Shown: positions 15,439-18,754 of the stretch, piece by piece | Numbering within the stretch: the stretch's first letter is position 1 | Layout of the letters: the number at the start of each line of letters is the position of its first letter | IMG/VR virus record: IMGVR_UViG_3300044710_000107 | Span: 1 to 64,000 of that record | Origin: a virus | Length of the DNA: 64,000 nucleotides | Strand: one strand, 5' to 3' | Notes under the pieces: model-generated | The model's input: the letters and a program-made list of their open reading frames with translations, nothing else | Databases searched by the model: none | What the model was told of the DNA's origin: nothing | Program-made: the position numbers and the translations under genes

Positions 15439-16376
15439 TGCCGCACCCCTGGCGTGCAATCGTCTGGAAAGTCTGCCCACCGTCCCATCTCGGCCTCCAT
15501 GTAGCCGCGGTACTCTGGCGTTCCTGGCCGCGGCTCGGGCAGTTTCAGGATGGCGGCCGGTTCGTTCGGCTTGAAATATCTGGGGTCGGCGTACTGCGTT
15601 GGGCTGCCGTTGAGCGGCAGCAGTGGCGCGGCCTGCTTCGGCTCGAAGATGCCGGTCCAGCCATTTTCGATGCTGGTGTTAAGCGCGGTTGCCGGGTCAT
15701 GACCTTTCTGCCGCCATTCGGAAAGATGCTTGAGGATCAGCCGGATCGCATCGTCGGTCAGCCGCTTGCGCAGGTTTTTCCGGTGGGCAACAAAGGACTG
15801 CCACGCATCGTTTGGCCACCAGTCAGGGAACGCCACCCCCCCGCTTGCGGGGGGTTGGGGGGTTCTTTCTTTTTGTCCCTGTCCCTGTCCCTGTCCCTGT
15901 CTAACGTGTTTCGTGCTCGTTTCATGGGGCGTTTCATGGGGCGTTTCACCGCCGTTATTCCGCCGTTCGCGCCAGCGTTTCAATCTATCAGAGTCGGCGT
16001 TTCGGTCGTCGGCTCTGCGGCGTTTCATCTTCCATGCGCGAAGTGCGTCCTCGCACAACGTTCGGTGATACCAGCGCCCATCGGAGCATAGGACGAACCC
16101 ACGCATGACGGTATGCCAGTGGCGGTTCACCAGCGATTCCTTGGTCATGCCAGCGAACGAGGCGATGACACGCTTGTCCGCCGGCAAGCTGCCAGCCGGA
16201 ACCTGTTTCCAAGCTCGGCACCAAAGGGCTACCGCCGACTTGAACTCCTCGCCCGTGGACAGCGCCCACAGTTCTGAAGCCAACAGCCTTTCGACGTTCA
16301 ACATAAAGCCGTCGAGGTCGCGAAGGTCGCAGTCTGGCGGCGTCAGCGGCTCGGGAAGCTGCGCCGCTTCGCCCAC
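15435..16376 (-). CDS. Phage replication initiator-like protein (DUF1376-type N-terminus)
   Basis: 'LPEPLTPPDCDLRDLDGFMLNVERLLASELW...LWCRAWKQVPAGSLP'; C-terminal 'WQSFVAHRK...SIENGWTGIF'; internal iterons. Confidence 0.85.
   Translation of the reverse strand: MGEAAQLPEPLTPPDCDLRDLDGFMLNVERLLASELWALSTGEEFKSAVALWCRAWKQVPAGSLPADKRVIASFAGMTKESLVNRHWHTVMRGFVLCSDGRWYHRTLCEDALRAWKMKRRRADDRNADSDRLKRWRERRNNGGETPHETPHETSTKHVRQGQGQGQGQKERTPQPPASGGVAFPDWWPNDAWQSFVAHRKNLRKRLTDDAIRLILKHLSEWRQKGHDPATALNTSIENGWTGIFEPKQAAPLLPLNGSPTQYADPRYFKPNEPAAILKLPEPRPGTPEYRGYMEAEMGRWADFPDDCTPGVRQ
15836..16030. promoter_or_regulatory. Putative replication origin (iterons inside the initiator gene)
   Basis: (TGTCCC)x4 at 15874-15897; CGTTTCATGGGG x2 plus a partial copy at 15918-15949; further CGTTTC copies to ~16026; T-rich run and C-tract/G-tract inverted repeat at 15836-15873. 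Confidence 0.65.
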
Positions 16377-16378
16377 CG

Positions 16379-16636
16379 TCAGCGCCCCCGGCGAGGCTGA
16401 TATCTTCCGGGCCGCGGTTCCGGCATGAACGCGACCTCCGTGATCTGCCGGTGCGCGCTGGCCGTCGACTCGGCCTCGTCGCGGATATCCCGTTCGTCGG
16501 GGCCGGTGCGCAGCCACGCATGCCACGAGCGCAGGAACGCGCGGCGCATGGACTGCATCTCGAGGTATTCGGCCGGGAACGTGTCGGCAACGGGCTTGCG
16601 TTCCGGGAAAATGGTGGCTAAATCCAAGGCTGGCAT
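16379..16636 (-). CDS. Hypothetical protein
   Basis: MPALDLATIFPERK...; between the tRNA-like locus and the initiator. Confidence 0.55.
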   Translation of the reverse strand: MPALDLATIFPERKPVADTFPAEYLEMQSMRRAFLRSWHAWLRTGPDERDIRDEAESTASAHRQITEVAFMPEPRPGRYQPRRGR

Positions 16637-16687
16637 CGCGACTTCCTTTCGCGGTTGCAGCGCGGGCGGCATCCCAATGATCCGTCC

Positions 16688-16760
16688 GGTGTATCCCCCG
16701 GGCTCGAACCCGGTCCTATCAGCCGGCCCTCGCAATCCCCCGCGAGGGTCGTGCTGTTTC
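16688..16760 (-). ncRNA. Structured RNA segment: long hairpin plus T-arm-like stem-loop
   Basis: CCCTCGCG-loop-TGCGAGGG hairpin then CCGGG-TTCGAG-CCCGG; no matching 5' acceptor strand. Confidence 0.3.
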
Positions 16761-16763
16761 AGG

Positions 16764-17273
16764 TGGTTGCGGGACTCGGATTTGAACGTCCGTCCTACCC
16801 AGAAACAGCATTCCTATGCTGCCACGTCGTCCCGCACGCTCGCGAGCAGAATATCTGGCCGGTCTTGTTCCGGCCTGCTCGCAGTCGCGCCACGTGTGGC
16901 TTCAACGAAAACCCCCTCCCGCACTCCGGGCAGACGACCAGGACCGGCGGCGGGGCTGCTTTCTGTCGATGATGCCGCGCGTGCTCGCTGGCCGTCTTGA
17001 GTTCGAGGTTGCCCGGCGTGTCGTTGCGCTTGTCCTCATCGACGTGGTGGGAGTGCTCGCCTGGGAGCAGTAGGCGCCCGAGTTTGTTTTCGAGGAGAAC
17101 AATGTGCAGCGGGTAAAGGCCCTTGGCATTTCGCCTGGGATGCGGTGGGGCGGTGCGGCAGTAGCGATAACCGCCGCCTTTGCATGTCGAAAGGATAGTG
17201 AACATCCGTCCATTGTACGCGCCCCGTTATGAGCCGTCAACGCACGCGAGCTACCGGGCTGCTCCACCCCGCA
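16764..17273 (-). tRNA. tRNA-fMet(CAU)-derived gene interrupted by an HNH ORF (non-canonical; may be a pseudo-tRNA)
   Basis: 5' part TGCGGGGTGGAGCAGCCCGGTAGCTCG...GGCTCATAAC (17273-17226) and 3' part GTTCAAATCCGAGTCCCGCAACCA (16787-16764); acceptor TGCGGGG/TCCCGCA pairs, D-arm intact, CCA encoded. Confidence 0.75.
16795..17205 (-). CDS. HNH homing-type endonuclease with C-terminal Zn finger, inside the tRNA-like gene
   Basis: 'YPLHIVLLENKLGRLL...HHVDEDKRNDTPGNLEL...EHARHH', 'CPECG...FCSRAC'. Confidence 0.9.
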   Translation of the reverse strand: MFTILSTCKGGGYRYCRTAPPHPRRNAKGLYPLHIVLLENKLGRLLLPGEHSHHVDEDKRNDTPGNLELKTASEHARHHRQKAAPPPVLVVCPECGRGFSLKPHVARLRAGRNKTGQIFCSRACGTTWQHRNAVSG

Positions 17274-17349
17274 TCACCTTCACAGCACCGTCATGCTGCG
17301 CCATCGCGCCGAGGCTAGTCAAGACGGTCGCGAGGCCGTTGCGCACCAG

Positions 17350-17775
17350 TCACCATCTGGCGGGGTCGGAATGGTGCGGCACGTACGTCCTGGCGCCGAT
17401 CGGCCTCGCCGGCGGCAGGCGGACCACCGGCACGCGCCAGCGACGGGGACGTGGTGCAGGCGGCTTCGGTGTGCCGACCGGCGCCGCCGGGGACTCTACC
17501 GACATGGACGCCACAGGCTCGGGCGGGAAGTCCGGTGCAACGACATGCCCGTCGCCCATCGGCGCCCCCAGCGCCTTCGCCAGGATCGCCGCGGCCCGGT
17601 CCCGCGCCTGCATCTCGTGGATGCCGGCAGGCCGGTGCTCGATGCGGACATCGGCCTTCCCCTCGTCGGTCATCTTCGTCAACATCACGCGCTCGAGCGC
17701 GTCGAGCGCCCAGGCCCAGGGCGCATCCTTGTTGCGGCGTTGCGCCACAACGGTCCAATCGCCGGTCAGTTTCAT
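17350..17775 (-). CDS. Hypothetical protein
   Basis: GAGGTGAGG RBS; 141 aa. Confidence 0.6.
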   Translation of the reverse strand: MKLTGDWTVVAQRRNKDAPWAWALDALERVMLTKMTDEGKADVRIEHRPAGIHEMQARDRAAAILAKALGAPMGDGHVVAPDFPPEPVASMSVESPAAPVGTPKPPAPRPRRWRVPVVRLPPARPIGARTYVPHHSDPARW

Positions 17776-17779
17776 GGCC

Positions 17780-18754
17780 TCACCTCTCCCTTGGTTGCGC
17801 CCGCTCGCCGGCGCCGCGCTTCAGTTCGAATGGCACCAGGCCGAGCTTCTGCCGTCGGGCGTTCACCTCGGGCAGATTGTCGCCGCGGAACTCGATCCCA
17901 CGCGCCGCCGCCCAATGCTCGATCTGCTGGAAGTCGGCCGGCAGCAGCGAGCCGTTCAGTGCTGCTGCGGCTGGTTTCCCGTGCGTATGGCTGCCCTTCG
18001 GCACCAGCGGCCGGCGCAGACCGAGCTCATTCGCCCAGGTGTAGAGCCACGTCCGCTCGACCTTACCGCCGTCGAGCGCGTTCACGGCGTCGTCGACCTC
18101 GGCCATTCCCTCGGCGGTCGGATACAGGCGCCGCATGACGGCCTCGCGCTCCTTGGTGCGCCAAGCGGCGGGCGGCGGCTCAGCGGCGGGTGGTTTTGCG
18201 CGTTGCCTCTCCCATTGTCGCTCAGCGCCGGCTTTGCCAGCGAAGGCCGCGAATCCCTCCGGGCGCCGCAATCCGAGCGCGTTGGCGCGGTTTGAGATCA
18301 GGTGCGCTGGCCCAGCGTCGCCTGGCAGCCCACGGAGCGCCGCCTCAACGTCACCAAGCAGGGTGAGGGTTGGCCAGCGGTCCCGCAGCACGTCGTCGCG
18401 CGCCGACGTCCATTCCCATCGCTCGGCGGCCACGGTGGACGACTTTTCTTGCTCGGCCGGATTTTCGTCCACCCGCGCGGGCGACGGCGCGGAAATCCGC
18501 GGTCCTGCGGCGGCGCCGACTGGCCCAATTTCCGCAGGGACCGCCAGCGGTTCCAGGGCAGTAACCAGTTGTCCAGCGCCATCGGACAACTGCACGGCCG
18601 CTTTCCGATGCTTGTTTGCCAGCAGGATCAGCCGCAGCATGGCCTTGCAATCGGAATCCGATAACTTGCCGACGCCGATTTCCTCCAAGAGCATCAGCAT
18701 CGTATCGATGTAGACCGTCCAGCCGCGCTCGGTGTCCTCGAAACGGTCGGTCAT
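17780..18754 (-). CDS. Hypothetical protein with repeated Myb/SANT-like segments
   Basis: 'WTSARDDVLRDRWP...ANALGLRRP' and 'WRTKEREAVMRRLYP...ANELGLRRP'. Confidence 0.65.
   Translation of the reverse strand: MTDRFEDTERGWTVYIDTMLMLLEEIGVGKLSDSDCKAMLRLILLANKHRKAAVQLSDGAGQLVTALEPLAVPAEIGPVGAAAGPRISAPSPARVDENPAEQEKSSTVAAERWEWTSARDDVLRDRWPTLTLLGDVEAALRGLPGDAGPAHLISNRANALGLRRPEGFAAFAGKAGAERQWERQRAKPPAAEPPPAAWRTKEREAVMRRLYPTAEGMAEVDDAVNALDGGKVERTWLYTWANELGLRRPLVPKGSHTHGKPAAAALNGSLLPADFQQIEHWAAARGIEFRGDNLPEVNARRQKLGLVPFELKRGAGERAQPRER

Follow-up and report, generated by a model that had tools for sequence, protein, structure and literature searches.

An HNH gene lies between pieces of an initiator tRNA gene

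The window, a stretch of 64,000 nucleotides of viral DNA, carries on its - strand an HNH open reading frame (ORF) that is flanked by the 5' arm, the anticodon loop and the 3' end of a tRNA-fMet gene, just as the first-pass annotation had read them (Table 1). The ORF product matched Pfam HNH_3 (PF13392) over residues 32-77 with 31.3 bits against a cut-off of 24.8 (E 1.6e-7), as well as eight HNH families of PHROG (best E 2.8e-15). Homologues of the ORF were gathered (n = 84), and in a 20-sequence alignment that included the window protein, all 40 invariant columns were retained by it. Residues H53, H54, N66, H75 and H79 and cysteines C92, C95, C120 and C124 were invariant in 20/20 sequences, and we take these to be the His/Asn core and the metal-binding residues of HNH_3. 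The closest annotated phage protein was merely 37% identical, and a profile search of PDB sequences with the HNH protein gave no match at E<=1. A role as a packaging HNH was considered and set aside: a match to GpA_ATPase was weak (E 0.018, under the cut-off) and fell on the Cys-rich tail, and the family is found in the context of tRNA genes, not of terminase.

The ORF was also present in an RNA library of another study (run X2), where a contig of 427 nt covered positions 16798-17224 with 0 differences. Across 16000-18000, the contigs of this run lay at 16000-16122 and 16798-17224 alone; at a depth of ~3 they permit no conclusion on absence, RNA ends or strand, and the library may contain DNA. 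The ORF is alive, being intact and conserved as judged from the Pfam match, the invariant columns and the RNA-library contig, and its product is predicted to act as an endonuclease.

Table 1 Features of the HNH locus in the window, in - strand order from the 5' end.
Feature	Position	Strand	Identified by
5' arm of initiator-type tRNA-Met: acceptor 5' strand, positions 8-9, D arm, G26	17247..17273	-	Read in sequence; nhmmer; E. coli matches
Predicted sigma-70-like promoter, TTGACG-17 nt-TACAAT, ending 6 nt 5' of the HNH ATG	17212..17240	-	Pattern scan
GGCTCATAAC, anticodon-loop remnant (CAU) with one base either side; now promoter spacer	17226..17235	-	Colinear with full tRNA-Met genes
Direct repeat copy 1, GGACGGATGTTCA; contains the ATG; aligns with variable loop, T-stem 5' strand and T-loop start	17199..17211	-	Repeat search; alignment
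Predicted HNH_3 homing-endonuclease gene, 136 aa, ATG start, TAG stop, C-terminal four-Cys zinc-ribbon-like part	16795..17205	-	ORF; Pfam; PHROG; homologues
12-bp inverted repeat, arms 16810-16799 and 16763-16752, enclosing exactly 35 nt from stop codon to CCA	16752..16810	-	I7, 92% complementary
Direct repeat copy 2, GGACGGACGTTCA; overlaps last base of TAG and extends into T loop	16783..16795	-	Repeat search
3' tRNA piece: T loop TTCAAAT, T-stem 3' strand CCGAG, acceptor 3' strand TCCCGCA, A73, encoded CCA	16764..16786	-	Read in sequence; nhmmer
GC-rich hairpin, 10-bp stem and 8-nt loop; terminator-like on + strand alone	16724..16751		Inverted-repeat search (I12)
Third copy of TACAnnGGACGGAT, downstream of T-arm-like hairpin	16680..16693	-	D2, 86% over 14 nt

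The tRNA at the locus is dead

The 5' arm was 93-97% identical over 29 nt to annotated tRNA-Met genes of E. coli, in 5426/5426 genomes. When a profile built from 22 phage tRNA-Met genes was searched against the locus with nhmmer, the 5' part matched profile positions 2-40 (E 4.5e-4) and the 3' part positions 44-77 (E 3.5e-4). The 3' end reads GTTCAAATCC...CCCGCAACCA, with its last base at 16764, and its best single match was the tRNA-Met of locus L067 (20/22 nt). In DNA run X1, depth climbed from ~21 to 176 across 17206-17272, so this stretch is matched by many other soil contigs. GC-rich DNA yields many short matches, and the Rfam tRNA model found nothing here at E<=10; yet the probability that the flanks are not tRNA-derived and only resemble a tRNA by chance is close to negligible, given a 29-nt match of such identity to annotated tRNA-Met genes, two colinear profile matches at ~E 4e-4, and the recurrence of the same arrangement in relatives.

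By reading, the acceptor strands retain 7/7 pairs, one of them G-T, and position 1 is a T paired with A72. The anticodon stem (GACGG/CGGGG) and the T stem (GGACG/CCGAG) allow no pairing, and an alignment with full tRNA-Met genes (A2) placed two extra segments at the borders of the anticodon loop. ARAGORN reported 0 tRNA genes in the window, also when introns of up to 1500 nt were allowed, and Rfam RF00005 had 0 matches in the complete 88,245-bp phage genome. Deletions were then made in silico at 72 x 70 junction pairs, and none of the 5040 restored a tRNA-Met. The scan returned just 125 weak 'Val(gac)' and 2 'Ser' predictions, all with broken T arms; the 125 'Val(gac)' predictions used TTGACGG as the loop and left the T stems unpaired, and were discarded as scan artefacts. 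Removal of the insertion thus gave no cloverleaf with four paired stems in the window, and the tRNA-fMet at this locus is dead.

A predicted promoter occupies the former anticodon arm

The sigma-70-like promoter was the only promoter-like site within 16300-17800, with 10/12 positions matched where 0.3 such sites were expected by chance. Its two hexamers fall within the extra segments that border the anticodon loop, and the same layout was read upstream of relatives L002, L010, L047/L059, L073 and L075. If used, this promoter would give a leaderless or near-leaderless HNH mRNA, judging from the spacing to the ATG. The X2 contig starts 19 nt 5' of the ATG, within the predicted promoter, which is a misfit with a transcription start exactly at the ATG, though contigs cannot show RNA ends.

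The promoter spacer includes CTCATAAC, which was considered as the enzyme's own operator site; autorepression by I-TevI is the model for such an arrangement. A strict pattern scan found 3 viral matches besides the window, 2 of which precede HNH_3 genes: L090, which is the contig of L010, and L092, which encodes NUMOD4 and HNH_3. A scrambled-pattern control gave 1 match, ahead of a dCMP-deaminase-like gene, and among the 24 matches to a relaxed pattern, HNH genes lay downstream in the same two (L090, L092) alone. These scans are too weak for an operator to be claimed.

No ribozyme accompanies the gene

Outside the ORF there are 41 nt from the D arm to the ATG and 8 nt from the stop to the T loop. 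The ORF therefore fills the insertion and leaves no room for a ribozyme core, in agreement with the first-pass annotation. Rfam at E<=10 detected no group I or group II match within 16000-18000 and no tRNA, and at E<=5 no group I or group II match in seven split relatives; a group I core folding across the ends of the ORF was thus looked for in the window and these relatives and none was detected. Third-codon entropy at 9 conserved four-fold columns of 52 homologues averaged 1.81 of 2 bits. These columns sample residues 10-36 alone, in the conserved N-terminal third of the ORF, and the value therefore indicates no nucleotide-level constraint in that segment. With the scans negative and synonymous sites free, a hidden ribozyme was rejected.

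The position of the insertion likewise departs from that of a group I intron, which has a P3-P9 core, interrupts the anticodon loop and follows a 5' exon ending in U. The window lacks the core, has an intact anticodon loop on the 5' side, and shows the duplication across the variable/T region. The ORF lies outside any self-splicing intron or intein and is free-standing.

Relatives of the gene are found in or beside tRNA-Met genes

Eighty-three loci were fetched, of which 63 were distinct; with the window they make 64. An intact tRNA lay <=150 nt away in 28/63 loci, and a tRNA-Met(CAT) in 20/63. With the window counted, a tRNA-Met gene or fragment adjoined the ORF ends in 35/64 loci, so that the flanks of homologues do hold tRNA-Met genes or halves; no tRNA piece was found on either side in 20/64 under the set criteria, although 5 of these have one by eye (L010, L016, L017, L041, L053). 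The 5'-arm motif occurred <=130 nt upstream of the ORF in 17/60 loci, compared to 0/60 inside the ORF and 2/60 further upstream. In the complete 62-kb phage G002, the sole tRNA is the tRNA-Met adjacent to the HNH gene. The fragments in relatives are of many lengths and many are truncated, and the gene is commonly surrounded by partial tRNA-Met duplications (L032, L061, L083, L002). The loci belong to bacterial-type phages, with encoded CCA and matches to alphaproteobacterial MAGs.

The gene is patchily distributed, in unrelated contexts next to the conserved tRNA gene. The four neighbouring proteins of the window had 0 matches within the 83 loci, the 141-aa neighbour had no viral relatives, and the phage collection gave no DNA match. 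No empty allele was found via the phage collection and the relatives of the flanking genes, because these relatives are too distant: those of the DUF1376 neighbour were at 48-59% identity only. A quick tree of 52 rows omitted 12 sequences that were short or had internal stops (L005, L016, L063, L064, L068, L076, L077, L079, L080, L081, L082, L084). The different configurations were interspersed on this tree, which is poorly resolved (4/48 inner branches starred) and gives no order of events.

In three relatives (L025, L050, L058), a tRNA that is otherwise perfect carries the ORF as a clean anticodon-loop insertion of 387-409 nt, at sites 34/35 or 32/33. When the insertion is taken out, these three, unlike the window, give a cloverleaf with four paired stems. 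The stop codon of the ORF falls inside a tRNA at 14 loci, and a TAA stop coincides with U36-A37-A38 of the anticodon loop at 6 loci by ARAGORN coordinates and at 3 more by reading.

The perfect cloverleaves and the tidy design of the TAA stop would suit an intervening sequence that consists of the ORF only and is taken out of the RNA to leave a working tRNA or an mRNA-tRNA hybrid. This is very unlikely. In the family, no ribozyme was detected and many relatives carry truncated, useless fragments; in L025 and L050, which are cut at 34/35, the last base of the 5' exon is C or G and not the U that is the rule for group I introns. For the window, no deletion restores tRNA-Met, both stems are broken, and the halves are unpaired in the predicted fold. 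The proposal of the first-pass annotation that the halves pair around the ORF and are processed to a possibly aminoacylated mRNA-tRNA hybrid is not borne out: the T stem cannot form, the fold pairs otherwise, and X2 (depth ~3) contained no contig joining the tRNA halves across the ORF within 16000-18000. A narrower form concerns the clean members only, as true ribozyme-less intervening sequences whose HNH message is excised from the anticodon loop and whose halves are rejoined by proteins, for example by a phage or host RNA repair/ligase pathway, with the window as a dead relic whose anticodon arm turned promoter. We regard this as improbable. Perfect tRNA halves in three relatives are predicted by recent insertion and equally by a spliced gene, and the matching acceptor and anticodon stems between halves cannot decide between insertion and splicing, because common descent gives them.

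A role of the HNH protein beyond selfish spread was also weighed, in which it would cut host initiator-tRNA genes in the course of infection or, in the manner of SegB of T4/T6, promote recombination or amplification at an anti-defence tRNA locus, with the fragments as scars. The identity of the 5' arm to bacterial tRNA-Met genes means that host genes would share any target there, the partial duplications of tRNA-Met fit amplification, and SegB is reported to amplify anti-defence tRNA loci (PMC13096335). However, the window phage is without an intact tRNA to amplify, and a selfish element would produce the pattern equally well. Such a role is unlikely.

Repeats and folding of the flanks

The 13-nt direct repeats named in the first-pass annotation, at 17211-17199 and 16795-16783, were recovered; they are identical at 12/13 positions, and the sole mismatch creates the ATG. 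GGACGGAT occurs a third time 524 nt downstream, and the third repeat copy lies 44 nt 5' of an ATG at ~16636, which is likely the start of the next gene. Three of the 4 GGACGGAY sites of the window lie within these 532 nt, all on the same strand. The same annotation had proposed an intron-less homing element that entered the tRNA with duplication of its target. The element itself is supported, as no ribozyme was detected and homologues are flanked by tRNA-Met genes or halves; duplication of a T-arm target is not secured, as the clean relatives are inserted in the anticodon loop and the repeat has a third copy. We know of no HNH enzymes that make 13-nt duplications, and a simple homing event does not account for the repeat or for the triple GGACGGAY.

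The 12-bp inverted repeat is formed in the minimum-energy fold, with the 3' tRNA piece in the loop of this separate hairpin, and the 5' acceptor strand pairs with codons of the ORF instead of its 3' counterpart. These features bear on whether the tRNA-like flanks work as RNA, by mimicking a tRNA or by guiding the processing or stability of the HNH message, and not as a decoding tRNA; examples would be recognition by RNase P/Z, or protection of the 3' end by the hairpin that encloses the T loop, acceptor strand and CCA. Several observations are in keeping with this: the acceptor strands are fully complementary and CCA is encoded, the inverted repeat closes precisely around the 35-nt 3' piece, decay has been uneven, with the 27-nt 5' arm nearly unchanged while stems were lost, and the ORF runs into a tRNA in 14 relatives, so that message and tRNA would be processed from one transcript. 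Nevertheless, a function of the flanks at the RNA level is unlikely. The T stem that RNase P/Z-type recognition requires cannot form, the z-score of the fold is just -1.82, and the fragments of relatives vary in length as debris would; transcription from the predicted promoter would begin downstream of the 5' arm and leave it out of the message.

A probable homing endonuclease gene with tRNA-Met genes as its landing site

We conclude, with a probability of about 0.72, that the ORF is a free-standing HNH_3 homing endonuclease gene of a kind that inserts itself into the tRNA-Met genes of phages, and that the window holds an old insertion with its own sigma-70-like promoter. The conserved tRNA sequence would most likely serve both as the cutting target and as a homology arm, and the gene may be copied into a co-infecting phage by intron-less homing. 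Because no ribozyme accompanies the gene, insertion would inactivate the tRNA, and the halves would afterwards decay because phage tRNAs are dispensable. The window copy appears to be a relic of such an event, in which the anticodon and T loops are recognisable along with the acceptor and D arms, the anticodon and T stems are unpaired, and the former anticodon arm now holds the putative promoter, 6 nt before the ATG.

Free-standing homing endonucleases are already known from phage tRNA clusters, among them the HNH endonucleases F-TflI/II/IV of the T5 tRNA region, and intron-borne ones from bacterial tRNA-fMet genes. T4 SegB recognises a tRNA T-psi-C motif and homes in the T4 tRNA cluster (PMC2330249). 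SegB resembles the gene described here in being a free-standing endonuclease gene among phage tRNA genes, with a conserved tRNA motif as its site, tRNA genes as both target and homology, and intron-less spread. SegB, however, is a GIY-YIG enzyme encoded between intact tRNA genes, whereas here an HNH_3 gene lies inside tRNA-Met or replaces part of it, and its target is putative.

For I-SspI (I-Ssp6803I), the target is the tRNA-fMet anticodon stem-loop (PMC2175346). This homing endonuclease is likewise associated with the initiator-tRNA anticodon region, in which L025, L050 and L058 have their insertions. It is encoded in the group I intron of cyanobacterial tRNA-fMet (Bonocora and Shub 2001, as cited in PMC3984707). 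The two differ in that I-SspI is a PD-(D/E)XK enzyme in a self-splicing intron and the tRNA survives, whereas in the window an HNH_3 gene has no ribozyme and the tRNA is dead.

Archaeal bulge-helix-bulge introns in rRNA and tRNA genes carry LAGLIDADG ORFs and need the archaeal splicing endonuclease and ligase. They share with the present loci an intervening sequence that is almost wholly endonuclease ORF, without a ribozyme, but depend on archaeal enzymes, whereas the loci here are those of bacterial-type phages. We know of no bacterial route back for a tRNA that is cut in the anticodon loop. Among protein-coding genes, mobE reportedly splits nrdA in Aeromonas phage Aeh1 (PMC3045599), and 'fractured genes' have been reported (PMC2677866). 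In these cases as well, an intron-less homing endonuclease gene lands in a conserved gene and leaves two halves; in contrast to the tRNA pieces, the halves are those of protein genes and reportedly reassemble as proteins or by split inteins.

A literature search found no published description of the element. According to a 2014 review, all phage introns seen by then were in protein-coding genes, despite the many tRNA genes of phages (PMC3984707). The present loci make up a sizeable uncultured HNH family directly in or against phage tRNA-Met genes, without a ribozyme, to which the window adds a decayed end state with a predicted promoter in the old anticodon arm. Such a family would explain tRNA fragments and 'missing' tRNAs in phage annotation and would make a conserved RNA gene a portable landing pad. 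If the clean split tRNAs are rejoined by proteins, they would represent a type of tRNA splicing that is new to the bacterial world.

An HNH gene lies between tRNA-fMet pieces

The virus record that holds the window is complete (88,245 bp, direct terminal repeats, G+C ~66%). Direct reading placed tRNA pieces and an HNH ORF between two co-oriented genes on the - strand. The ORF is the first-start ORF of its frame, and its protein matched Pfam HNH_3 above the curated cut-off as well as eight PHROG HNH families. The first-pass annotation had described tRNA-fMet pieces around this ORF, and both the coordinates and the comparisons bore this out. The 5' arm was 93-97% identical over 29 nt to annotated E. 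coli tRNA-Met genes (5426/5426 genomes), and a profile built from 22 phage tRNA-Met genes gave two matches at E ~4e-4, its positions 2-40 to the 5' part and its positions 44-77 to the 3' part. The 13-nt direct repeats were also as described (12/13 identical), and their sole mismatch creates the ATG of the ORF.

Features of the window locus and of split tRNAs in relatives
Feature	Position	Strand	Remark
tRNA 5' arm, 27 nt	17273-17247	-	Direct reading
11 extra bases including TTGACG	After 5' arm	-	Direct reading
GGCTCATAAC	17235-17226	-	Direct reading
GGGG, then ~10 extra bases including TACAAT	3' of GGCTCATAAC	-	Direct reading
GGACGG, then ORF ATG	ATG 17205	-	Direct reading
136-codon ORF, stop TAG	TAG 16797-16795	-	Direct reading
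GACGGACG, then TTCAAAT CCGAG TCCCGCA A CCA	End 16764	-	Direct reading
Three GGACGGAY sites	16680-17211	-	Before ATG; after stop; 44 nt before next gene's likely ATG
GC-rich hairpin	16724-16751	-	Within stretch 16697-16751
L025, tRNA-Met, 407-nt insertion	34/35		ARAGORN intron option
L050, reads Ile-GAU, 409-nt insertion	34/35		ARAGORN intron option
L058, tRNA-Met, 387-nt insertion	32/33		ARAGORN intron option
L069, doubtful fourth split tRNA			ARAGORN intron option

The insertion can be parsed in two ways. Either the junction lies in the T loop and tRNA positions ~44-57 were duplicated, as first annotated, or, as is typical of the family, a promoter-plus-gene cassette replaced the anticodon arm and later copying produced the repeat. 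Of the four GGACGGAY sites in the window, three fall within 532 nt on one strand, and copies 1 and 3 have TACAnnGGACGGAT in common; this clustering suggests local duplications.

The neighbouring sequence held two further features. A T-arm-like hairpin, GGGTTCGAGCCCG, lies 3' of the GC-rich hairpin, matches the T arm of a tRNA-Gly at 13/13 positions (E 0.018) and is followed by ...GGGATACACC; together these may be what is left of a second tRNA. Within the 141-aa upstream gene, one contig of a metagenome DNA run, possibly the source sample of the window, skips 252 nt (window 17431-17684) at a depth of 8.8 versus ~21, with only 24 letters on the shorter side of the joint, and may represent a deletion variant or another organism.

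The tRNA of the window is non-functional

ARAGORN called no tRNA in the window, including when anticodon-loop introns of up to 1500 nt were allowed. The Rfam tRNA model found none in the whole 88,245-bp genome and was positive in 14/14 control genomes, and Rfam at E<=10 returned neither tRNA nor intron within 16000-18000. In a deletion scan that paired each of 72 left junctions with each of 70 right junctions and removed the sequence between them, tRNA-Met was recovered in 0 of the 5040 variants. The 127 calls that did arise (125 'Val(gac)' and 2 'Ser') were rejected, their T stems being unpaired. By direct reading, neither the bases flanking the anticodon loop (GACGG/CGGGG) nor those flanking the T loop (GGACG/CCGAG) are complementary; the acceptor stem (7 pairs, one of them G-T) and the D arm are the only surviving elements. 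The tRNA is dead.

It had also been proposed that the tRNA halves pair around the ORF. Folding of the 526-nt RNA (z-score -1.82) did not predict this: the 5' acceptor strand paired with ORF codons, and the 3' piece lay within the loop of another hairpin, one with a 12-bp stem. The 5' acceptor strand (17264-17275) is 83% complementary to 17139-17150, codons of the conserved PPHP motif of the HNH ORF with which it pairs in the predicted fold; this complementarity may be due to chance.

The locus does not contain a group I intron

The ORF leaves only 41 nt on its 5' side (D arm to ATG) and 8 nt on its 3' side (stop to T loop), and Rfam detected no group I or II intron at the window locus or in seven split relatives, in agreement with the earlier claim that a ribozyme core has no room there. 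A core overlapping the ORF would be expected to constrain synonymous sites; across 52 homologues, third-position entropy averaged 1.81 of 2 bits at nine four-fold codons that are conserved and located in residues 10-36. The absence of the defining core places the locus outside the family of tRNA group I introns.

The HNH family is associated with tRNA-Met

The HNH protein has 84 homologues in a large protein collection, mostly at 50-68% identity and all unnamed or labelled 'HNH' or 'hypothetical'. The closest annotated phage protein is only 37% identical, and a profile sequence search found no solved structure. The window protein keeps all 40 invariant columns of a 20-sequence alignment, including the His/Asn core and four Cys. 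Eighty-three loci were fetched, of which 64 were distinct by HNH DNA; omission of L022, a 34% partial match, left 63.

An intact tRNA lay within 150 nt of the ORF in 28/63 loci, and in 20/63 it was tRNA-Met(CAT): upstream on the same strand in 8 (gaps 4-139 nt), downstream on the same strand in 11 (starts between -66 and +38 nt relative to the ORF end) and on the opposite strand in 1. Many of the adjoining tRNAs look initiator-like (CGCGGGG... and GGGCTCATAACCC). With its intron option, ARAGORN called the entire HNH ORF an 'intron' in perfect cloverleaves. The split tRNA at L050:1932-2415 (flank positions 332-815), once its insertion is removed at 34/35, reads as Ile(GAU), not Met; a GCG direct repeat at both junctions makes the true junction and anticodon ambiguous.

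Partial tRNA pieces were numerous, as judged by profile matches and the 5'-arm motif, which occurred within 130 nt upstream in 17/60 testable loci (controls: 0/60 inside the ORF, 2/60 further upstream). When three detectors were combined over 64 loci, window included, a tRNA-Met gene or fragment adjoined the ORF in 35. Both a 5' and a 3' fragment were present in 4/64 (window, L025, L050, L058), with L069 carrying both plus another tRNA; a full upstream tRNA-Met with a 3' fragment in 4/64 (L061, L062, L083, L055); and a 5' fragment with a full downstream tRNA-Met in 2/64 (L032, L065). The order in L061 is 5' fragment, full tRNA, HNH, 3' fragment. The detectors found no piece on either side in 20/64, five of which contained pieces by eye (L010, L016, L017, L041, L053). 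Configurations were interspersed on a quick, poorly resolved tree.

At 14 loci, a tRNA contains the stop codon of the ORF. This stop is the anticodon-loop TAA in six (L025, L028, L032, L044, L050, L058; by reading also L057, L024, L010) and a TAG, mostly in the 5' part, in L005, L051, L055, L065, L066, L067, L069 and L073; that of L065 is in the T-arm/acceptor region. These ORFs have no stop codon of their own, and the reading frame enters the adjoining tRNA, so that excision of the tRNA from the transcript would remove the message's stop.

The complete virus record containing L002 (G002; 62,304 bp, direct terminal repeats) has one tRNA genome-wide, the tRNA-Met beside HNH. This tRNA (L002:2859-2965) lies 35 nt upstream of HNH and is preceded by a stranded 22-nt tRNA-fMet 5' fragment and repeated TTGACAGTTGATGC motifs, and the arrangement looks like a cassette bringing a spare tRNA-Met. 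The window's four neighbouring proteins had no match in any fetched family locus, which, together with the tRNA-Met association, indicates that the HNH gene travels with tRNA-Met sequence and not with the phage backbone.

The HNH gene probably has its own promoter

In alignment, the 5' part of the window locus is colinear with full tRNA-Met genes from position 1 into the T loop, except for two extra segments, one on each side of the anticodon loop, which hold TTGACG and TACAAT. This pair is the only promoter-like site in 1.5 kb (10/12 positions, 0.3 expected), and 6 nt separate the predicted promoter from the ATG. Comparable layouts, with an ATG 5-7 nt after a -35/-10 pair, were read in L002, L010, L047/L059, L073 and L075. 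Judged by its sequence, the gene is probably transcribed from a promoter of its own into a leaderless or near-leaderless message. A contig from an RNA library of a different study and sample covers 16798-17224 with zero differences. It is consistent with expression, though it starts 19 nt upstream of the ATG, and such contigs cannot show RNA ends and may reflect DNA carry-over.

The same layout (TTGACT, CTCATAAC in the spacer, TATAAT, 6 nt, ATG) was seen at an unrelated NUMOD4+HNH_3 gene in an AT-rich viral contig (L092:5360-5961), where no tRNA is nearby and enrichment over chance is weak. In another viral contig (L108:445-474), a small HTH-like ORF is preceded by 17 nt, TTGACGGCTCATAACGG, that also occur in the window's promoter region; this match is probably due to chance, since 13 of those nt were already set by the search pattern.

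A probable selfish gene in a phage tRNA

The best-supported reading is that the locus is a selfish free-standing homing endonuclease gene. Of the earlier interpretation, an intron-less homing gene in a tRNA is supported, as relatives adjoin tRNA-Met, and halves pairing around the ORF is not, given the fold. The HNH gene would find both its target and its homology in the tRNA-Met/fMet gene, which is highly conserved; lacking a ribozyme, its insertion would disrupt the tRNA, and it would persist in the phage because phage tRNAs are dispensable. Some lineages, such as L061, have an intact tRNA-Met on one side, whether retained or brought in. The window would then represent a late stage, in which the tRNA is dead and the gene, still intact, carries a promoter. 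That the protein is an endonuclease, what it cuts and that it homes are all inferred from its family and its surroundings, with precedent in the accounts of SegB, described as recognising a tRNA T-psi-C motif (PMC2330249), and of I-SspI, whose described target is the tRNA-fMet anticodon stem-loop (PMC2175346).

The proposed intron-less mode resembles SegB-type homing, and the gene-splitting resembles that described for mobE (PMC3045599); the window locus differs in its class of enzyme and in its position within an RNA gene. A full-text literature search, with subscription journals and supplements outside its reach, turned up no account of an endonuclease ORF placed directly within a phage tRNA gene, and a passage of a 2014 review places every phage intron then known in protein genes (PMC3984707). 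As a relic, the copy in the window holds modest interest; the question of weight for the family is whether its clean split tRNAs are ever rejoined.
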